A DNA stretch of 64,000 nucleotides from Escherichia phage ECO71P1. Position numbers and translations under genes: made by a program. Positions 6,364 to 54,735 of the stretch are shown here, piece by piece; the stretch's first letter is position 1; every line of letters begins with the position of its first letter. The DNA is taken from sequence record OP172789; one strand, written 5' to 3'. The notes beneath the pieces are model-generated. The model ran no database searches. It saw nothing but the letters and a program-made list of their open reading frames with translations, and was not told the origin of the DNA.

Positions 6364-6464
6364 TTACTCACCCCTGCCAAATAATATGCCATATCCAATA
6401 CATATAATAGCCCCAGGATGATAACAAGGGAAATGATTAATGTGTATTTCTTTACGGCTTTCAT
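6360..6464 (-). CDS. small hydrophobic protein (about 34 aa, one predicted TM helix)
   Basis: Hand translation MKAVKKYTLIISLVIILGLLYVLDMAYYLAGVSK; stop overlaps next start (ATGA); below ORF-track size cut-off. Confidence 0.3.
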   Translation of the reverse strand: MKAVKKYTLIISLVIILGLLYVLDMAYYLAGVSK

Positions 6465-6482
6465 ATGTATCTATACCTAAAT

Positions 6483-6746
6483 TTACTGTTGAGGATCACC
6501 GATGGAGCCTGTCGCATCCCATTCAACGCGTGCTGAACGGTCTGCTGGTGGACAACCTTCTCCGGCGTAAAGCTCCACCACGCCTTCGTGAGAGCAGCAC
6601 TGGCACTCTACAAGGTCGCCGTCCTCCCAGGCACCTTCCTCTGCATTGCGATGCTGCCGCACCTTGATCACATCGCTTGCACAGTTAGGACAAGTCGAAA
6701 GACTGCTTGTGACGTTCCAAACAAACTCGTTGCGGAAAGCACCCAT
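6483..6746 (-). CDS. hypothetical protein with zinc-ribbon-like Cys pairs (CPNC...CQCC)
   Basis: Start trimmed to MGAFRNEF to abut upstream gene. Confidence 0.4.
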   Translation of the reverse strand: MGAFRNEFVWNVTSSLSTCPNCASDVIKVRQHRNAEEGAWEDGDLVECQCCSHEGVVELYAGEGCPPADRSARVEWDATGSIGDPQQ

Positions 6747-6747
6747 G

Positions 6748-7038
6748 CTACACCTCTTGATCTCGCTGTTGTTGAATCGCGGCTGCAGCTTCTTCAAAAT
6801 TCACTGGCTCAACGGTAAACGTTGCACTGACAGTGAAGTTGTTAATCGTCAGCAAAGTATTGAAACGCTCTGCATTCAGATTCATCGCCACGTGAGTCGA
6901 AACATTAAGGATTGCGCCAACAACTTCTTCAACCGCATAGCCTTTAAACAGAGGAAGAATTTCATTGACAAGCTTCAGCTCGTTCTCCACGCGAAGTTTT
7001 TGCGCTTCTTCAGTGGTCATCATTTTTGGTTCGTTCAT
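6748..7038 (-). CDS. hypothetical protein
   Basis: 96 aa ORF. Confidence 0.45.
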   Translation of the reverse strand: MNEPKMMTTEEAQKLRVENELKLVNEILPLFKGYAVEEVVGAILNVSTHVAMNLNAERFNTLLTINNFTVSATFTVEPVNFEEAAAAIQQQRDQEV

Positions 7039-46316: not shown

Positions 46317-47735
46317 TTATTCCCCTTTCAACCAAGCTTCAAATGCTTCGTCAGTTGCTGCAGAATCCGCAGCGGCCTTTTGTTTTGCGACTACACGCTG
46401 TTTTTGACCGTGTTCAACGCCGCGCAGATAATTATCCACCACGTCAAACTCAGCACCATCAACGCACTTCAAGCCTAACTTTTTAGCGCCATATTTCGCT
46501 ACGGACTTGGAGTCCATAGTTGCATGATCAAAGGCACCAACAACTTTAGACAGGCGCTGGTAGAGGCTATTCTTACGAGCAGAATCAGCGTAGAAAGCAG
46601 CAACTGCTGAATCAGATGCCATTGAGTGTTCCCCTTTTGCTGGACCTGGCGACGCTTTCGCCGCTTTTGTCGGTTTGTCATCTTTTTCGACCGAAGCCCC
46701 CTTTACGTTGCTGTTTTGCAGGCCGCTAACCACATCTTCAGCTTTGTCGCAAGGTGATACATCTTCAGCCTTGACTTCAACTTCTTCGTCTTTGACTTCG
46801 GCTTCAACTTCTTCTTCATCACCTACCGCGCCACCTTTAAGTTTTGCAATAAGTGCTTCGATTTGGCTGATCAGTTGCGGAAGCTCGCCGCCAGCGTGAG
46901 ATTCAGTTTCAACTTCAAACTTCTCTTCACCTTCTGGAGTCTCTTCAGCTTCTGCTTTAACTTCTGGATCAACCATCACTTCTTCACGTTCTTCGGTTGA
47001 ATCCTTCTCTTCTGCTTTCACTTCAACTTCGTCCTGATGAGCAGCTTCGGTGCTCTCTTCATTCAGAAATTGTTCGAGCGCAGGGATCAGTGATTTCAGC
47101 TGTTCAACAGCATTATCACGCGCTTTACCTTTTAACGGTTTTGGCATGTCTAAATCCTCGTTGGATGGTGTTACAGTCGTCAAACAAAGATGGTCAAAGC
47201 AACGACCATCCAGCACCCGTGCACCTGGTACTCGACCAACGTCCACGAGAGCAATGTGGTTGCCGCGAAGAGTTGTCTGTACCACTTCATACGGCTGCCC
47301 GTCAAACTCTCCAGACTGTATGATGAATTCACAGTCATAGCCCAAAGACAAGTCAACCTTTCCAGAATCGATGGCCTTCTTCAGACGACGGCTAAAAACT
47401 TTAAGGTCGCCGCGCATCCATGGCTTGTCATAATAAACATTGCCAGTTAGAACGCCATCAACGCCATACTCTTCGGGTGCTGTGTTATCCTCATCACCTT
47501 CGAATCCAGAAAGCATTTCGTGATTGTCGATGAAAGGGATATTTTTGAATGAATCTATCGCTTCGGGGTCTTTCACCGCTGACTCTGGGCGATAAACTTT
47601 TACGATGCGATTCGGATCACCATCAAGTCCAACCTGACCTGCAGAATAATCAAAAATGCCAAATGACGAAATGGGACAACCCACAATCGTCAAGAATCCA
47701 TTTTTGTCAATTTCGCGTGCCGTTTGCATTCGCAT
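46317..47735 (-). CDS. prohead scaffold/protease-like protein with long acidic Glu-rich linker
   Basis: 472 aa, central EEVEAEVKDEEVEVKAED-type acidic region; GAGGGTGG RBS. Confidence 0.45.
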   Translation of the reverse strand: MRMQTAREIDKNGFLTIVGCPISSFGIFDYSAGQVGLDGDPNRIVKVYRPESAVKDPEAIDSFKNIPFIDNHEMLSGFEGDEDNTAPEEYGVDGVLTGNVYYDKPWMRGDLKVFSRRLKKAIDSGKVDLSLGYDCEFIIQSGEFDGQPYEVVQTTLRGNHIALVDVGRVPGARVLDGRCFDHLCLTTVTPSNEDLDMPKPLKGKARDNAVEQLKSLIPALEQFLNEESTEAAHQDEVEVKAEEKDSTEEREEVMVDPEVKAEAEETPEGEEKFEVETESHAGGELPQLISQIEALIAKLKGGAVGDEEEVEAEVKDEEVEVKAEDVSPCDKAEDVVSGLQNSNVKGASVEKDDKPTKAAKASPGPAKGEHSMASDSAVAAFYADSARKNSLYQRLSKVVGAFDHATMDSKSVAKYGAKKLGLKCVDGAEFDVVDNYLRGVEHGQKQRVVAKQKAAADSAATDEAFEAWLKGE

Positions 47736-47845
47736 CCACCCTCAAATAAGTATTGTGTATTATATCTAATGAAAAAAACTTAGGCAAACAATAATTATGG
47801 TTTGAATATGTATAACAACCGATATAGCCGCGCCTTAATTAGTGT

Positions 47846-48107
47846 GATACGGATGATACGGATAAAATGAGGCGTATTTTTATCCGTATCGGTGTATAAG
47901 CCGCGCTATCACTGGTGTGCTACGGATGATACGGATGATACGGATACTTTTCATATATAAGAGTTTATAAAAAAATAAAATTAAATTAGATATATAATTT
48001 TAAATTAATTTATTTGAATTCCTATAAAGTATCGCGGCAACGCGTATCATCCGTATCATCCGTAAGATTCTTTTGAAAACAACTACTTACTTGATACGGA
48101 TGATACG
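47846..48107. repeat. iteron cluster: direct and inverted copies of TACGGATGATACG flanking an AT-rich core
   Basis: 47846-47863, 47921-47947 (triple), inverted copy 48043-48064, 48093-48107; AT-rich 47948-48030. Confidence 0.7.
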
Positions 48108-48151
48108 TCATTATACGCGTAAAATCCTGCGGCAATCCATTGCCAGGCGAT

Positions 48152-48299: not shown

Positions 48300-49220
48300 T
48301 TAGTTCAACTTAATTGCGGTGATCTGTCCGTAAACGGTAGATGTCAATTCGTCTGTGCATTGATAGTTTAGATACACGTTGCCAGGCGCGGCAAGAGTAA
48401 TTATCTTTGTTGGAATATTGCCGCCGAAACGACCTGCAGCCCGAATGCCAGCAGACATCGTGAATGCATCATCCGTAATATCTGAATTACTTGTTGACAA
48501 TTTTACTGTAATTCCGGTATTCGCTTGAACTCCTTCTGTTGCGACAGTCAACTGACTTGCTGTCACAAGCCATTTCCCTGCAGGCAGGTTTAATGTTGCC
48601 AGATTCACCAGAGTTGTCGGAGGATTGCTTACACTATTGCTTGTGTTTTGCACATTGCTTGCAGCAGCATTAAGAACTCCAGAACCATCAATTGATAGTG
48701 TCGCTCCTACTTTTACGCCACCCAAGGTTGATGCTGATGCAATCGGTAACGAGTATTGAGTAACACTAATTGTACCGTCACCTGCAACACTTATGCCACT
48801 TCCTATCTTGACGCCGCCGAGAACAGAAGCCGTTGCCGCTGGTAACGTGTATTGGTTGCCGCTGGATTTGACTACCTTAACGGCGACAGCATTCTTGGAC
48901 CCTCCAGACTCCATGCCTATAATCACCGCTTCTCCAAAAGCGATGGTGATTGTAGATGCAGTTAAACCAGTCTGCACGTCTGTTATGTCCATTTTGGGAA
49001 CTGAAAGTGTCAGATTCGGCTTGCTGGTAGAATCGCCATCATTACCGATCATAAAGAATTGGCCGACTGAATTGTATCCAGATGCCAATGGCGGACTCAA
49101 TGGAACAATCAAATTTTTATCGGATGTAAATTCTGAAACAATCGCCAAACCGTTCGCATATACAGCAGGTAATACTGGCGTTTGTCCAGATATAGGAAAC
49201 GTGCTGATTGGTATCGTCAT
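48300..49220 (-). CDS. fibre-repeat protein in the head module (LPxAxASxLGGVKxG repeats)
   Basis: QYTLPAATASVLGGVKIG and QYSLPIASASTLGGVKVG tandem motifs; GAGG RBS before internal ATG. Confidence 0.4.
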   Translation of the reverse strand: MTIPISTFPISGQTPVLPAVYANGLAIVSEFTSDKNLIVPLSPPLASGYNSVGQFFMIGNDGDSTSKPNLTLSVPKMDITDVQTGLTASTITIAFGEAVIIGMESGGSKNAVAVKVVKSSGNQYTLPAATASVLGGVKIGSGISVAGDGTISVTQYSLPIASASTLGGVKVGATLSIDGSGVLNAAASNVQNTSNSVSNPPTTLVNLATLNLPAGKWLVTASQLTVATEGVQANTGITVKLSTSNSDITDDAFTMSAGIRAAGRFGGNIPTKIITLAAPGNVYLNYQCTDELTSTVYGQITAIKLN

Positions 49221-49227
49221 AATGACC

Positions 49228-50079
49228 TCAAATGATTGGTATTTTCCTGCACTTGCAGTGTATTGCCCATCCAGGAGGACCGATGTCACCCTTTTTGAAC
49301 TTCAATTCTCCGCCAACTTCCCATAGGCGCTTGTCATCAAGTTTAAATCTCATTCCGTCGACGTGTTCATGAGAGATTCGCGGCTCCTTTCCTGCTCCTG
49401 AGTGCGCCCATTCAAATTCTTCAACTCCATTCTGGCGCATCCTTTCATCGCTTAGAACGCAATACAATTTGCTTGTCTGGTCTTTAGCGATTAAGTCGAC
49501 TCTCTTTGCAGAGAAGTGTTTTACGTTTCGCAGCGCCGCCTGAATGCCTGACGTGCCTTGCTGGGCTGGGTCGGGCGAAGTCAGCGAAAGCATTACTGCT
49601 TCGTACACTCTGTTGTGAATATCCTCGCCGACCTTAGTCACTAGAGTCGTGTTAAACGTCTCGCTTGTTCTAAGAGTGTTCTCAACGAATTTGTTATATG
49701 TGGCCTTTGGCGCTTCTATGCCTGCGGACTTAAGGCTGGCGAATGTAGCAGAAGTAGCACCCTTTTCGACCGATTTGATAAAATCAGCGGCAATCTTTGA
49801 CCCAACACGAGCAAACGCCCTTGCCCATTTCAGCTGCAGACGTTTCATAAGAGTTTGGAATGTTGAATCAGCAGAGTCTTGCGCAAAGAACTTCTGCACC
49901 TGCTTCTTTTCAAGCCACTCTGAAATTCCTGCCTGATAGTCATCAATCATCGCATAGCAAAGACCTTTCATCTCACGACGGTAGGCCATTGCAATAGCGT
50001 TTGATGGGATTATCGGACTGCCGCGCCCGATTCTATCGGGTGAGCGGCGTTCACGTTTTTTCGAAGCTTTAAAAGCCAT
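49228..50079 (-). CDS. head morphogenesis protein (Mu F / SPP1 gp7-like)
   Basis: Position directly after portal; start trimmed to MAFKASKK. Confidence 0.45.
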   Translation of the reverse strand: MAFKASKKRERRSPDRIGRGSPIIPSNAIAMAYRREMKGLCYAMIDDYQAGISEWLEKKQVQKFFAQDSADSTFQTLMKRLQLKWARAFARVGSKIAADFIKSVEKGATSATFASLKSAGIEAPKATYNKFVENTLRTSETFNTTLVTKVGEDIHNRVYEAVMLSLTSPDPAQQGTSGIQAALRNVKHFSAKRVDLIAKDQTSKLYCVLSDERMRQNGVEEFEWAHSGAGKEPRISHEHVDGMRFKLDDKRLWEVGGELKFKKGDIGPPGWAIHCKCRKIPII

Positions 50080-50080
50080 A

Positions 50081-52456
50081 TCAACCTTGCTTCGGTGAAT
50101 TAGTAGGATTATTGAGTGCTCCGTATGCTTGAGAGCAATCACCCTTCAACCACTCCTTGAATGAGTTCACATCTAATTCGTGGATTGAGTCGAATCCATT
50201 CCAACCGTTACCAAATGATGCTTGATAAGCTTCTTTCGCTTCTTCTGCTGAATCGAATCCAAGCATACACTTGTGTTCATCAAACTCGCCAGAGTAGTTA
50301 TCGTTTTGGTTCACGATAAAGACTTTCGGCGACTTCAGATTTGGACCCACAAAGCAGTCTACTTCATCACCGTCTGCACCCTTGGTGCCCTTGATGAATC
50401 CGTAGTGGTGCGGCATCTTCACGGCCCATTCACCGTCAAGGCTGTTTCCTCTACGAATGCTGTTGCGCGGATTCTCAATGCCAAGAATCATTCCGTGCAA
50501 CTTCATCTTAGGTAATGATGCTGCGTCCATTTTACCAACGTTGTGGCGTAAGTTGACGACGTGTCCTTTAACGCTTGGAAGGGTAGACGGTTGCACCGAC
50601 CGTGAATCTTTTTGAGGGTCAAAATCCACATCCTGACCTTCTTTCAGGTAGTAATCCGCAATACCCTCCAGACCTTCTTTCAACTGCGTTAGGACATCAA
50701 CCTGATGGCTTGATTCATCATCGGTGTCGTCCATGTTGATTTCGACAGGTGCTCTGTCAGGGTTTTCTGCCAACTCACCACGCGCGGCACCCTCTGGCAT
50801 AATACCTGTTTCGCTATAGAACTGGCCGCCCATCTTGACAACATCAGCTTTCGCCTGTTCAATATCGGCCTTACCTTGCAGGACTTCACCAGCAGACTTG
50901 CCAAGCAATGCCATATTCTCTGGAGACATCCCTGGGGTTTCTTCTGCTGCGTCTTCCGGCAGACGGTTGTAGCCGCTGTTTTTGTCGTCTTTGATGCGGT
51001 CGCGCTCTTCATCAGGAGAAATGACGCCAGCATCAATAAGAGTTTTGCCAGTGTTGGCTCGCTTATCATTGATTTCTGCAAGTTGAGTAGCAGTAAGTGA
51101 GCCAACTGGTTCCCATGCAACCTTAACATCGACATCCACCCCTTCTGATTTGAGAAGGATTTTGTAATGGCGGTCGAGAATTTTTGTCAGGTCATGCTGC
51201 TGGCACGTTTCCAACTCTTCGTGATAGCTGACCATCTCGAATTCACCAGTAGCGTTAAAGCCTTTCGGCGAAGTCCCAAGTAGTTTGGTTGACGGAACTT
51301 TTGCGATTGCGGCCACCAGCTGGTACTGGTTCATGATGATGCTGTCGAAGTCTGACAAGTTGATGTCGAACTGGTCCATCTCTTCTTTTTGGCCAAGCAC
51401 TTTGACTGCATAGTTATCGCGGTACTTGATCCACATCATCAGACGTTCTGCAAAAGACCGCTCATTGGCAATCGCCTTGTCAACGTCGGTCCGCAGCGTG
51501 GTTGTACGCTTGGACATCGCCAGCAATGGCGCTTCGTTAGCGGTACGTTCAGCGGCATAGATGCGTTCATAAATCTGCTGAGTCAGAGGAATGCCGCCGT
51601 AAATATAAGTTGGCTTGAGAATATCAGCTGGCTCATCATTGCGCAAGATGATGAGGTGACTGCGATGATAACGTTGTCCGCTGATCACCCAGTATTCTGG
51701 ATCATAGAAGTGCTGTGATGCAGGGTCGGCGGTGTTTTCAGACGTTAAAAATGGCATCATCCAATAAGGGTCAACCTGAATGATTCCCTTATAAGACCCC
51801 TTTGTCACACCATCAATGTTAAAAGGCTTGCTGTAATATTCTGGATCATCGCTACGCACATCAAATATGATGACGCGGATACCAAAAATATTTTTGAATC
51901 GTTCGGCTTCAACTAAGTGCTCTTTGATATTAAATTCTTTATCAATTTGCTTTAGGCGTTCGCTTGCCTGCACTGACAATTCTGACTCAGAACTGGATTT
52001 GACTTCCCAACCTTTACGGACCGCATCGCGTCCTACCATGGAACACGCCTTGTTCACCAGCCAATGCTGTGCGATGATGGCACAAGCTTGATAGCCGATG
52101 AATGACTGTGACAAATACCAGTTTTGAAGTTGAATAGGTACTGTGTATGGGTTGACCTGCCCTTCTGAACTGATGTTCTTCAAGGCATTATCCATGACTT
52201 TTTTGGATACTGTTGCGGAATCGACTGAACGGCCTTTTATGATAGCAACACCGTCGCCATTAATATCAGGCTCATATAAAGGGAAGTCATCAACCGTTTT
52301 AAAGGTCGGTCGATTGCTTTCAGTCTTTTCCCAGCGTTGACCGCTGCCGCGCCTTTCAAGGCGTTCAAACGGTGCCAATGGGTCGCCTGGCGGCATCTCC
52401 GCTGGTTCGGCTTCTGGTTGCGTCTTCTCCCAGAGTTTTATGCCAAGAATTTTCAT
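50081..52456 (-). CDS. portal protein with C-terminal extension domain
   Basis: About 790 aa, between terminase and head morphogenesis genes; AGGTGG RBS before MKILGIK. Confidence 0.55.
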   Translation of the reverse strand: MKILGIKLWEKTQPEAEPAEMPPGDPLAPFERLERRGSGQRWEKTESNRPTFKTVDDFPLYEPDINGDGVAIIKGRSVDSATVSKKVMDNALKNISSEGQVNPYTVPIQLQNWYLSQSFIGYQACAIIAQHWLVNKACSMVGRDAVRKGWEVKSSSESELSVQASERLKQIDKEFNIKEHLVEAERFKNIFGIRVIIFDVRSDDPEYYSKPFNIDGVTKGSYKGIIQVDPYWMMPFLTSENTADPASQHFYDPEYWVISGQRYHRSHLIILRNDEPADILKPTYIYGGIPLTQQIYERIYAAERTANEAPLLAMSKRTTTLRTDVDKAIANERSFAERLMMWIKYRDNYAVKVLGQKEEMDQFDINLSDFDSIIMNQYQLVAAIAKVPSTKLLGTSPKGFNATGEFEMVSYHEELETCQQHDLTKILDRHYKILLKSEGVDVDVKVAWEPVGSLTATQLAEINDKRANTGKTLIDAGVISPDEERDRIKDDKNSGYNRLPEDAAEETPGMSPENMALLGKSAGEVLQGKADIEQAKADVVKMGGQFYSETGIMPEGAARGELAENPDRAPVEINMDDTDDESSHQVDVLTQLKEGLEGIADYYLKEGQDVDFDPQKDSRSVQPSTLPSVKGHVVNLRHNVGKMDAASLPKMKLHGMILGIENPRNSIRRGNSLDGEWAVKMPHHYGFIKGTKGADGDEVDCFVGPNLKSPKVFIVNQNDNYSGEFDEHKCMLGFDSAEEAKEAYQASFGNGWNGFDSIHELDVNSFKEWLKGDCSQAYGALNNPTNSPKQG

Positions 52457-52618
52457 TGTTAACGCCACCTGACAGTGAAAGGGAATCAATCTATATTATA
52501 AATATTCATGTGTTTGTAAGCAAATGATATGTATGGTGATCATAAATAGTTCATAAAATATTTTGCTTTTGTATCATTTTGAGTTATATTTTAGTTAACC
52601 AAACGAAAGGAGATTGAA

Positions 52619-53035
52619 ATGAGCACAACAATTGTATTTGTCGTCCTGCACAACGGCGAAGTCGTTAACGTATGTGAATGTGAAGAACTGGCAAAGGCCA
52701 CTGCCGCGCGATACGAAGGTGCTACTATTGACCCGTGGATTTTAGATGCGCGAAACGTCTTGCAGGCGACTTTGGATGAGTGGCTGTTGGGTCGCAAAGT
52801 CTATCCAGTAGACAATATCGACTCCATTCAAGGTGAAACAGTATACTTTGAAGATGAATGCGTTCGCGGAATCGGCAAATTCATGGGATTGTGCCCATCT
52901 TCATCCAAAAACAAATTTTATCGTATTCAAGTTGAAGAAAACGATATGTTTGACAAAGTCACGCGCTCGATTGTTCCTGGCGGCGGCACTCCAATTTTTA
53001 TGGCAGAATCAGACATCAAGGGGATTATCAAATGA
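52619..53035 (+). CDS. hypothetical protein
   Basis: 138 aa; AAGGAGA RBS. Confidence 0.45.
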   Translation: MSTTIVFVVLHNGEVVNVCECEELAKATAARYEGATIDPWILDARNVLQATLDEWLLGRKVYPVDNIDSIQGETVYFEDECVRGIGKFMGLCPSSSKNKFYRIQVEENDMFDKVTRSIVPGGGTPIFMAESDIKGIIK

Positions 53036-53271
53036 GAACTTTAACCGAACTCGATGTTCTGAAAGATGTTGCAGCCGCGCTGGGCGTTGAAGTCTCCGAA
53101 AAGTCGACACTGGGCGCGCTGCGTCGCGATTTACTCGAAGCCGTCGACCGCAACGATTTTGACCGTAAGTGTTTGCAAAAGAAGATTCGACAGGCAGTAA
53201 GGGCGGGTAAGCGATTCCGTGCCAGGTCGTTTGCCGCGAGAAAACTCGACCTTCAGCACGGAATGCTTTAA
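53032..53271 (+). CDS. hypothetical protein
   Basis: 79 aa; ATGA overlap with upstream gene. Confidence 0.4.
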   Translation: MRTLTELDVLKDVAAALGVEVSEKSTLGALRRDLLEAVDRNDFDRKCLQKKIRQAVRAGKRFRARSFAARKLDLQHGML

Positions 53272-53274
53272 TTG

Positions 53275-54735
53275 TTAAAGGTTAGAGAAGAAGCCGGATG
53301 CTGCAACAATTGGTTTCATCAATGCCATGATTGCTGCGTCCGCTTTGTTAGGCGATTTGACTCCACGCTTTGCCATATCCTTTTTCGATTCAACTTTGAA
53401 CTTGCCAAGTACAGACGTGTCTTTGCGCGGCGCTGACATTTCAAAAAGAAACGTCTCAATTTCTTCCGCAGACCAAGCAGGAATCCCAAGTTCTGGGATG
53501 CCGTCTGTGTCGATGGAAATCAACTCATCAGTCGGGTATACGGCCTGCCCTGTTGCATACTCATATGTCTTCCTGAATCGTTCGGCAATCTCAGTCCATT
53601 TTTGCGCTTTTATGTTTGCGAAATGGTCTTTATTGAGTATTTCAACGTGTGGTAACTCAAGGAAAACGTCATCAGGATCATCAACAGCACCTTGCGCGTT
53701 GAACGCATTAAATTCGATTCTTGGGAATGTTGGATTTTCATGGATTGCATACTCATTGAGCTCATCAAATTTTGAACCAGCAAATGCACCAACACCGATT
53801 GCGTCATAGGTAATTGATGCGCCGAATGTCAATGCGTCTTTCCAAACTCCGCTTGCGGACTTAAGCAATTCATCTTCCAGACCTTCCCATGTCTTGATGC
53901 CGCGCAATACGTTGCCCGTGACAAATGCTGTGGCGTTTAAGTCGTCGCCGTCGTCCGCCACGTCAAAGCCTATACGGTTAGACCCTGACAAGCTCCATCC
54001 CAGCGTAGGGTGTTTGTGGAGGTTTAGCGCGGCCTTGACGAATGCACGGTTAATGACCGACTTGTCGCCGCCTGTCTTCGGTACTCCGCCATAAACGTGC
54101 TCTGCCTTTTTCGGGTCGCGCTCATACATGCCAGCAATAACGTCCAGCATTGTTTGCGACAAGAATGGGTTGTCTTGCCAGTTGATCTTCTTAACGATGG
54201 CATTCTTCGGCGGTCGCATGACAAAGTTCTGGTAAACGAAATCGGCCTCTTCATCAGGGTTAAATATGATCCATATTTCGGACCCTTCCTTACGAATTGT
54301 CGGCTCAATAATGTCCCACTGCTCTTCAGTCAGTGCGTGCGCTTCCTCAAGCCAAAGAACATCAACGCCTTCGGTTGATTTGATTTCGTCAACGTTGCGT
54401 GCGATACCGTAAAATAAGAATTCAGATTTTGTTCTTTTATGCTCAATGGAGTTTTTTAATAAGTTGAACTCGTCTTTAAAATCAGAAATCTCTATCTTAT
54501 CTTTTAATAGCGTATATACTGATTCAGAAATCTTGTTCTGGAATTGTCGAACGCAAAGGAATTTTAATTTAAAGTTTGCCGCCAAATAAATAGCAAAACC
54601 AGCGGCATCATGCGATTTGGAAGATGCACGACCGCCGTATATAACTTTGTATCGCGCTTTCGTCTTCCAGACTTCTCTTAAAGCAGGATTCAACTGGTAC
54701 ATGACTTTCCAATTATGTGTTAATATTTTATTCAT
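53275..54735 (-). CDS. terminase large subunit
   Basis: N-terminal Walker A VIYGGRASSKS; 486 aa with C-terminal nuclease-like acidic residues. Confidence 0.75.
   Translation of the reverse strand: MNKILTHNWKVMYQLNPALREVWKTKARYKVIYGGRASSKSHDAAGFAIYLAANFKLKFLCVRQFQNKISESVYTLLKDKIEISDFKDEFNLLKNSIEHKRTKSEFLFYGIARNVDEIKSTEGVDVLWLEEAHALTEEQWDIIEPTIRKEGSEIWIIFNPDEEADFVYQNFVMRPPKNAIVKKINWQDNPFLSQTMLDVIAGMYERDPKKAEHVYGGVPKTGGDKSVINRAFVKAALNLHKHPTLGWSLSGSNRIGFDVADDGDDLNATAFVTGNVLRGIKTWEGLEDELLKSASGVWKDALTFGASITYDAIGVGAFAGSKFDELNEYAIHENPTFPRIEFNAFNAQGAVDDPDDVFLELPHVEILNKDHFANIKAQKWTEIAERFRKTYEYATGQAVYPTDELISIDTDGIPELGIPAWSAEEIETFLFEMSAPRKDTSVLGKFKVESKKDMAKRGVKSPNKADAAIMALMKPIVAASGFFSNL

Follow-up and report, generated by a model that had tools for sequence, protein, structure and literature searches.

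Fusions of a phage portal protein with a pyrophosphatase-like (InPase) domain are already known, having been published in 2017, and the domain is represented in Pfam. In that work, Iyer and colleagues named a portal-InPase fusion in BcepF1.124, proposed injection into the host, and treated portal fusions as simple relatives of the polyvalent proteins; the background on head-packaged, injected enzymes is given in the same study (Iyer et al. 2017, PMC5512222). The InPase modules of polyvalent proteins (DarB-like and giant virion proteins) belong to the same Pfam domain and have the same predicted cargo role. Polyvalent proteins carry 2-15 domains, whereas in the fusion described here the portal is the carrier and InPase is the sole effector-type domain, the Pfam content being one structural and one enzymatic-type domain. 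Furthermore, the chain has no processing peptidase domain, while some of its orthologues add an ADP-ribosyltransferase. T4 Alt and the MuF-effector fusions offer a parallel in that a head component brings an enzyme into the capsid for the start of the next infection, a likeness that is a functional analogy only, without sequence relationship. In the literature we found no experiment on any member of the InPase family PF18823.

Cryo-EM structures are available for the portals of E217 (gp19, 8fvh) and Pa193 (gp19, 9b41), which are orthologues of the protein studied here and form a dodecameric ring at one capsid vertex. Both models stop at residue 528 of 765, with no density for residues 529-765 (PMC10329688; Pa193 paper), and beyond this missing density the C-terminal domain is left undiscussed in the two papers. 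We have analyzed the corresponding gene of Escherichia phage ECO71P1 in a window of 64,000 nucleotides (record OP172789). Its product is a full-length orthologue of BcepF1.124 (YP_001039808.1) and of the E217 and Pa193 portals, with 52-54% identity, and it has in common with them the Pfam pair PF06381 and PF18823 and the order terminase/portal/MuF/protease. It differs from them in host (E. coli) and genus (Wifcevirus), as well as in a diverged linker and N-terminal region. Since the identity of the domain and the hypothesis about its role have been published since 2017, the ECO71P1 window adds another orthologue and supporting comparative detail, not a new kind of system.

The gene and the portal fold

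The initial annotation had placed a portal gene of about 790 codons at 50081..52456, and both the coordinates and the length (791 aa) proved correct on the evidence of the open reading frame, the Shine-Dalgarno sequence and the GenBank start. The minus-strand frame itself spans 50081..52489, and the 791-residue product begins at the ATG at 52456, the annotated start of Bas99_0004 of Escherichia phage ManiWeber_Bas99 (genus Wifcevirus), to which the protein is 99.9% identical. In the window the gene follows the terminase large subunit and two small reverse genes, with MuF directly downstream and the protease further on; the order terminase, portal, MuF, protease is common to the window and its relatives. 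Scans of the entire window for Rfam families and tRNA genes gave 0 matches. The features of the locus are collected in Table 1.

Residues 122-468 match PF06381 (E = 3e-88; 296 bits against a cut-off of 33.8), and the identity of the protein to the solved Pbunavirus portals (gp19) is 52%, the match to 9b41 having E = 6e-251 and that to 8fvh E = 1e-189 over residues 107-538. The alignment of the latter segment takes in every one of the 431 residues modelled for the E217 portal, whose inward-pointing helical barrel has been described (PMC10329688). In an NCBIfam search the sole match was TIGR01555, which scored below its cut-off. By its sequence, the 791-residue protein is the portal protein of a Wifcevirus myophage and an orthologue of Pbunavirus gp19. 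The region ahead of the portal fold has a mean conservation of 0.3-0.4, with the exception of a DPLDP-type motif at residues 25-29. This N-terminal region is likewise absent from the cryo-EM models of E217 (PMC10329688) and Pa193, and the first 93 residues of the Pa193 portal were not detected by LC-MS (Pa193 paper).

Table 1. Features of the portal-InPase gene and of the head maturation protease gene in the ECO71P1 window (residues are those of the 791-aa portal).
Feature	Position	Strand	Remarks
Portal-InPase gene, complete	50081..52456	-	791 codons plus stop at 50081-50083; ORF list, GenBank annotation, checked translation
Shine-Dalgarno AGGTGG	52465..52470	-	8 nt upstream of the ATG at 52456
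N-terminal region, residues 1-106	52139..52456	-	predicted disordered, pLDDT < 50; poorly conserved
Portal fold, residues 107-538	50843..52138	-	with C-terminal helical barrel (helix 512-538); 8fvh, PF06381, AlphaFold
Linker, residues 539-645	50522..50842	-	acidic, poorly conserved, variable length, mostly disordered
Amphipathic helix within linker, residues 582-602	50651..50713	-	conserved; LxxLxxxL pattern
InPase domain, residues 646-775	50132..50521	-	OB-fold, family I pyrophosphatase-like
IENPR motif, residues 660-664	50465..50479	-	invariant E661 aligned to E20 of E. coli PPase
DGDEVD motif, residues 695-700	50357..50374	-	PPase signature Asp triad
FDEHK motif, residues 725-729	50270..50284	-	D726, E727, K729 invariant in 59 orthologues and in 34-member family alignment
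C-terminal tail, residues 776-791	50084..50131	-	disordered, unconserved
DUF2213 head maturation protease/scaffold gene	46317..47735	-	Pfam PF09979; phrog_3778 "head maturation protease"

A separate domain beyond the portal barrel

It had been suggested from the DNA sequence that the portal carries an additional C-terminal globular domain of about 200 residues. A separate domain is indeed present, with its own Pfam family, PF18823, and a high-confidence AlphaFold model over residues 646-778, but the size was not borne out: the domain has about 130 residues, and the whole extension beyond the portal fold has 253 (539-791), made up of a linker of 107, the domain of 130 and a disordered tail of 16. 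Nor does the domain begin at 'GEWAVKMPHHYGFIKG' (GEWAVK, G675), as had been claimed, since this stretch lies inside it, after the first three beta-strands, and the real start is about 30 residues upstream. PF18823 matches residues 649-771 with model positions 12-135 of 135 (E = 3e-46), and with 156.9 bits the match lies far above chance (gathering score, 26.8). The last modelled residue of the orthologous portals, 528, corresponds to about residue 538 of the ECO71P1 protein, and a related Bordetella phage portal lacks the whole C-terminal extension.

Two readings in which there would be no added domain at all were considered and rejected, and together we regard them as extremely improbable. 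The C-terminal region could be an extended crown or barrel of the portal itself, in favor of which the sole point is the long C-terminal barrel of some portals such as that of P22 (cited in PMC10329688). The fold and the family of the region are independent of the portal, however: among structural matches to the predicted fold, pyrophosphatases were the best and only consistent ones and 0 portal chains were matched, so that the region is not an integral part of known portal folds. The frame could also be an artefact in which two genes were joined; this was rejected because all of the 120 closest homologues, from many genera, share the same single open reading frame, as do deposited genomes.

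A free copy of the InPase domain made from an internal start was rejected as well, as no Shine-Dalgarno sequence precedes M643, M651 or M656 of the portal gene and no minus-strand promoter-like site was seen upstream of these codons.

Relation to the canonical pyrophosphatases

The InPase domain is a trimmed relative of the family I inorganic pyrophosphatases (E. coli PPA, 1faj/1ino; PF00719), with which it shares the OB-fold barrel and the YG-I...DGDxxD signature. Membership in the canonical family (PF00719, EC 3.6.1.1) was rejected, the score of 18.0 bits being below the gathering score of 23.5 and the match covering 25 residues only (679-703). The active site of E. coli PPase comprises about 14 residues, namely E20, K29, E31, R43, Y51, Y55, D65, D67, D70, D97, D102, K104, Y141 and K142. 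Six of these (E20, K29 as Arg, Y55, D65, D67 and D70) are aligned with support in the InPase domain. By hhalign (probability 88.5%), D695, D697 and D700 align to D65, D67 and D70, and Y685 to Y55, of the E. coli sequence, which was checked against 1faj; HMMER profile matches to PPases also cover the DGDEVD stretch. The pairing of E661 with E20, and of R668 with K29, comes from a permissive hhalign alignment, while the invariance of E661 was read from 59 orthologues. The PROSITE signature PS00387, D-[SGDN]-D-[PE]-[LIVMF]-D-[LIVMGAC], matches DGDEVDC at residues 695-701 and is found in 46 of the 59 orthologues.

D695 and D700 are invariant among the 59 orthologues, and D697 is kept in at least 90% of them. 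The residues E661, Y685, R668, D726, E727 and K729 are likewise either invariant or conserved at that level or above, and over residues 681-700 the conservation of the active-site stretch (0.84) equals that of the portal core. The acidic columns E661, D695, D697, D700, D726 and E727, putative metal ligands, are also invariant or nearly so in a 34-member PF18823 alignment. The FDEHK motif may be the counterpart of the D102/K104 region of E. coli PPase; this mapping follows strand order only, because the hhalign confidence drops to zero past DGDxxD. For the phosphate-binding residues R43, Y51, Y141 and K142 of the E. coli enzyme hhalign gave no equivalents in the InPase domain, and E31 is replaced by Gly; therefore, substrate and rate may differ from those of a true PPase. 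In the hairpin region the same alignment shows two gaps, of 6 and 2 residues, in the InPase domain compared with E. coli PPase, and a short hairpin is still present at 667-680 in the AlphaFold model. The initial annotation had guessed that the extension might have an enzymatic activity. This guess agrees with the fold, which is pyrophosphatase-like, and with the invariance of the catalytic-type residues, and the domain looks like a working enzyme, catalysis itself being a prediction from sequence.

Distribution and fusion partners

The PF06381 and PF18823 architecture was found in 120 of the 120 closest homologues, and within a large clade of phages the portal-InPase fusion is a fixed trait. 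In five of these 120, InPase is followed by an ADP-ribosyltransferase toxin domain (PF03496), and one such orthologue sits in the same terminase/portal/MuF/protease gene order. Outside the portals the domain is widespread: it is present in 12,276 representative clusters, with thousands of non-portal proteins, and 65 of the best 150 matches are giant proteins of more than 2,000 aa. It matches DarB-like and virion-protein PHROGs, and it is found fused, among others, to 2H phosphoesterase, LigD phosphoesterase, PBECR3 nuclease and SET domains, as well as to a different portal family, PF04860 (P0165).

Possible roles of the InPase domain

A packaged or ejected role for the InPase domain, as had been suggested from the DNA sequence, is plausible and matches the hypothesis of Iyer et al. 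2017 (PMC5512222). As a joint explanation we favor, with somewhat better than even confidence, an active hydrolase that is carried as portal cargo, released, and acts in the new host; we infer in this way the activity of the domain, its location in the capsid interior, its release, its delivery to the host and its substrate. Residues 107-538 form the portal fold and inward barrel, residues 539-645 a flexible, acidic and fast-evolving tether, and residues 646-775 the InPase domain. Because portals are dodecameric, twelve InPase copies, in total about 330 kDa of protein, would hang from the barrel into the capsid interior, judging by the topology that the solved orthologues have. We think it most likely that the domain is an active hydrolase, dependent on a divalent metal, which splits either pyrophosphate or a nucleotide-like phosphoanhydride. 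The portal would bring it into the capsid as cargo, and it would be released, probably by a cut within the linker, and then act in the newly infected cell. There, its effect might be to remove PPi, so that transcription and replication are favored early on, or to break down a signal of the nucleotide type. Against release, InPase is covalently bound to the portal, which remains in the capsid after ejection, and neither a cleavage site nor signs of processing were found; against delivery, a folded domain of 15 kDa would need to be unfolded to traverse the portal and tail channel.

A second explanation is that the enzyme is active but never delivered, remaining tethered to the portal and acting in the producing cell or procapsid, for example by local removal of PPi or nucleotides during late replication, assembly or packaging. 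We consider this a real though doubtful alternative. The covalent link to the portal in every one of the 120 closest homologues, the lack of an internal start or second promoter for a free copy, and a chain without a protease domain all agree with it, and the conservation of catalytic-type residues is explained equally well. However, host PPase is already abundant and efficient, and terminase yields Pi, not PPi. Moreover, it is in giant virion-packaged polyvalent proteins that the same domain is typically found, the ADP-ribosyltransferase toxin domain of some orthologues is most easily read as targeting host proteins early, and the long disordered linker suggests a tether or a site of processing rather than a means of fixed placement. 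It is also conceivable, if quite unlikely, that the domain is catalytically dead and has a structural role inside the head, as an OB-fold DNA or nucleotide binder that senses packaged DNA, an organiser of the genome end, or a part of portal-scaffold assembly. The OB fold itself, the PPase phosphate-binding residues that have no identified equivalent and the subthreshold PF00719 score point in this direction, as does the adjoining barrel of E217, which folds only with DNA present (PMC10329688). Nevertheless, neither the acidic metal-binding cluster as a whole nor the phosphate-binding residues of basic and aromatic type vary among the 59 orthologues or in distant family members, and such constancy across unrelated architectures is what a maintained active site typically shows; an acidic pocket would be a poor DNA binder, and related portals that have no InPase domain assemble normally.

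If the favored explanation holds, with an active domain that reaches the host, the portal would serve not only as a DNA channel but also as an early-enzyme carrier in a widespread group of myophages, among them the Pbunavirus phages employed in phage therapy against Pseudomonas, and some 330 kDa of unmodelled protein per virion would gain a function. A more specific version, which we regard as a long shot, is that the twelve InPase domains are cut free in the head, injected with or ahead of the DNA, and hydrolyse a nucleotide alarm or immune signal of the host instead of bulk PPi. Candidate signals would be a (p)ppGpp- or ppApp-like alarmone or a signalling nucleotide of a defence system. Such a reading is allowed by an active site that is conserved but lacks several PPi-specific residues, and by the other host-targeting enzymes that sister proteins bear on the same chain. 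If true, it would make the portal the delivery vehicle of a counter-defence enzyme.

The linker and the C-terminal tail

Among four genera the linker has 25% identity, compared with 67% for the portal core and 35% for the N-terminal region. In the orthologues its length varies from 101 to 151 aa and its median net charge is -5, and conservation falls to a trough of 0.22. The AlphaFold model has pLDDT < 50 over residues 527-579. A Pfam search found no protease domain within the portal-InPase chain. In the head module, the DUF2213 protein is the only candidate for cutting the portal extension. No conserved cleavage motif was seen in the conservation profile of the linker, which has only small islands of no assignable role. 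These are P571, the helix at 582-602, PEGxD at about 605-609 and R..xPS at about 619-625. The helix has block-mean pLDDT values of 69-89 in the AlphaFold model, and its LxxLxxxL pattern is visible in the consensus sequences. In the C-terminal tail, conservation is 0.17 and pLDDT is < 50 for residues 782-791.

Results

The portal gene sits in the head module (table below), and its start was placed at the ATG at 52456, which follows AGGTGG at an 8-nt spacer. The same ATG is the GenBank-annotated start of Bas99_0004 in Escherichia phage ManiWeber_Bas99, a gene that is 99.9% identical and belongs to a phage of the genus Wifcevirus, distantly related to the Pseudomonas Pbunavirus (PB1-like) phages (bioRxiv 10.1101/2024.09.12.612763). 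The product is 791 aa long, as was expected from the initial annotation, which gave about 790 aa for 50081-52456, and the public-record label of the gene is "minor head protein".

Features of the head module and of the portal protein (pLDDT, full-length AlphaFold model)
Feature	Nucleotides	Strand	Residues	Remarks
Large terminase gene	53275..54735			Head module, upstream of portal gene
Two small genes, no known function	52619-53271	+		Opposite to portal, between terminase and portal
Portal ORF	50081..52489	-		From the ORF list of the window
MuF-like head morphogenesis gene	49228..50079			Head module, next after portal
Gene annotated 'tail fiber protein' (Bas99_0006)	48300-49289	-		Between MuF and protease genes
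DUF2213 head maturation protease	46317..47735	-		Further downstream of MuF
N-terminal region	52139-52456	-	1-106	pLDDT < 50
Portal fold			108 to ~520	Ordered
PF06381 Phage_portal_3			122-468	Pfam, E = 3e-88
Barrel helix			512-538
Low-confidence stretch			527-579	pLDDT < 50, includes C-terminal end of barrel helix
Linker helix	50651-50713	-	582-602	Confident
Compact, beta-rich domain			646-778	pLDDT 86-95
PF18823 InPase			649-771	Pfam, E = 3e-46; 156.9 bits vs gathering score 26.8
C-terminal tail			782-791	Disordered
Portal orthologues bearing PF03496	L006:6001-9966 (P0209)			Also P0215, P0265, P0278, P0295

Two independent Pfam domains were found in the protein, and AlphaFold modelling of the full chain with 59 orthologues gave the layout listed in the table. 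The Pbunavirus portal gp19 is 52% identical to it over the full length. Residues 14-779 align to the 765 residues of the 9b41 chain, presumably Pa193 gp19, and residues 107-538 to the E217 gp19 chain (PDB 8fvh, 433 modelled residues). The published cryo-EM models cover residues 97-528 of E217 gp19 (PMC10329688) and 94-528 of Pa193 gp19 (PMC11456595), with no density for residues 529-765, and the C-terminal domain is not discussed in either paper. In Bordetella phage vB_BaM-IFTN5 the portal is only 491 aa, with a core that is 42-44% identical, and ends just past the barrel region without the extension. Across four genera identity is 67% in the portal core, 55% in the InPase domain and 25% in the linker (residues 539-645), which among the 59 orthologues is acidic in most cases and varies from 101 to 151 aa. 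For the same orthologues the portal core has a conservation score of 0.8-0.9, whereupon the score drops to 0.22 (residues 541-580) and recovers to 0.84 (residues 681-700), a profile that agrees with the predicted domain boundaries.

It had been proposed in the initial annotation that the portal carries a separate C-terminal domain of about 200 residues, which may be packaged into the capsid or ejected, as fusions of this kind sometimes have enzymatic or anti-defence activities. The independent Pfam family, the separate confident fold and the conservation trough between portal and domain all uphold its separateness, and the enzyme-like character is supported by a pyrophosphatase-like fold with invariant acidic residues. 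The domain is, however, about 130 aa long, the whole extension past the portal fold being 253 aa, and the suggested start at G675 ("GEWAVK...") falls inside it, about 30 residues past its beginning. As for the extension being integral to the portal fold, no portal chain was among the structural matches of the C-terminal domain in either of two fold searches.

AlphaFold modelling of residues 630-791 with 34 family members was confident (pLDDT 88.6, pTM 0.82), and the best 50 Foldseek matches were all family I inorganic pyrophosphatases (PPases; E from 2e-4, TM about 0.45). The family sequence profile also matches PDB PPases over the signature stretch, and its alignment to E. coli PPase, whose reference sequence was confirmed to be identical to 1faj/1ino, pairs Y685, D695, D697 and D700 with Y55, D65, D67 and D70 (probability 88.5%). 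The strict PPase signature pattern (PROSITE PS00387) matches DGDEVDC at residue 695. A permissive profile alignment adds E661 (E20) and R668 (K29), and since its confidence is zero past DGDxxD, the invariant D726-E727-x-K729 can be placed on the D102/K104 strand of the E. coli enzyme only tentatively, from strand order. Residues E661, R668, Y685, D695, D700, D726, E727, K729 and Y744 are invariant in the 59 orthologous portal fusions, where conservation of D697 is at least 90%. The family alignment of 34 members shows no variation at the equivalents of R668, Y685, G686, D700, D726, E727, K729 and A740, and conservation of at least 90% at those of E661 and D695. Identity as a canonical PPase was considered and rejected. 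Since the canonical model PF00719 stays below threshold on the window protein (18 vs 23.5 bits), and no counterparts were found for R43, Y51, Y141 and K142 of the E. coli enzyme, the InPase domain is taken to be a sister of family I PPases that has been trimmed and has diverged but has kept the predicted metal-binding core.

In an exhaustive profile search 12,276 representative clusters contained the domain, 9,338 of them at E ≤ 1e-30, and among the best 150 matches 65 proteins exceeded 2,000 aa and 9 had at most 300 aa. Its partners in mid-sized proteins include 2H phosphoesterase, LigD 3'-phosphoesterase, acylphosphatase, PBECR3 nuclease, SET and DNA ligase domains. Among PHROGs, the domain matched DarB-like antirestriction proteins, virion structural proteins and giant endolysin-containing proteins, among others. 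The PF06381 and PF18823 architecture is common to all of the 120 closest full-length homologues, most of which are on 66-74 kb contigs. Five of these (1,191-1,321 aa) continue past InPase with a spacer of about 250-370 aa, to which no domain was assigned, and end in a PF03496 ADP-ribosyltransferase exotoxin domain. The one such gene that was examined, from a metagenomic relative (L006), has its neighbours arranged as in the window (terminase/portal/MuF/DUF2213). In another protein (P0165, 742 aa) InPase is the C-terminal partner of a portal that belongs to a different Pfam family, PF04860 (HK97-type), which suggests at least two independent origins of the portal-InPase fusion.

Discussion

The portal-InPase fusion is real but already known, since it was explicitly described in 2017 with BcepF1.124 as the example (Iyer et al. 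2017, PMC5512222). Pfam has a curated family for the domain, and an identical protein in a public collection (P0194) has both Pfam labels. BcepF1.124 and the window protein share 53% identity over the full length, and a deposited orthologue from Luteibacter phage Pluto is named "inorganic pyrophosphatase". A literature search found no published experiments on any InPase (PF18823) family member.

Portals are dodecamers. As the barrel of the solved orthologues points into the head (PMC10329688), twelve tether-plus-domain units, together about 330 kDa, would be located inside the capsid above the barrel, in agreement with the lack of density there. The acidic cluster, being invariant, speaks for a phosphohydrolase that is functional and metal-dependent; a structural role without catalysis was ranked lower. 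Iyer et al. (2017) have proposed that the domain travels as cargo and is injected, so that at the outset of infection it would clear PPi or hydrolyse a nucleotide-type molecule. This proposal fits the recurrence of InPase in virion-packaged giant proteins, its fusion to two unrelated portal families, and the presence of a toxin-type ADP-ribosyltransferase on the same chain in sister phages. Its weak point is release, as the domain is covalently joined to the portal, which stays in the capsid. No evidence of cleavage was found, nor was an internal start in the portal gene that would yield a free InPase copy, and we can only speculate that the prohead protease of the module might cut the disordered linker. 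The enzyme might otherwise act only in the producing cell or procapsid, an explanation also considered less likely than the cargo proposal.

Small reverse-strand genes occupy the same terminase-portal position in a Pbunavirus relative, Pseudomonas phage crassa (L003), and in the metagenomic relative. The head module, in which Bas99_0006 lies, is an unusual location for a fibre gene, and the C-terminal half of the DUF2213 protease is long and very acidic. Upstream of the protease gene about 415 bp (about 47736-48150) lack both annotated genes and ORFs of at least 60 aa, and an Rfam search of this stretch gave no match; a comparable gap precedes the protease gene in crassa (about 6422-6933).

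The N-terminal region of the portal is predicted to be disordered and is weakly conserved apart from a few short stretches. These are a DPLDP-type motif (residues 25-29), conserved to at least 90%, and two small islands, DFP and MDS. Since the first 93 residues of Pa193 gp19 are absent from both cryo-EM and LC-MS (PMC11456595), the N-terminal end may be removed during maturation. The linker helix is conserved and amphipathic (LxxLxxxL), lying in mid-linker within disordered surroundings, and as some short metagenomic InPase proteins (P0001, P0002) start near it, it may be part of the InPase module.
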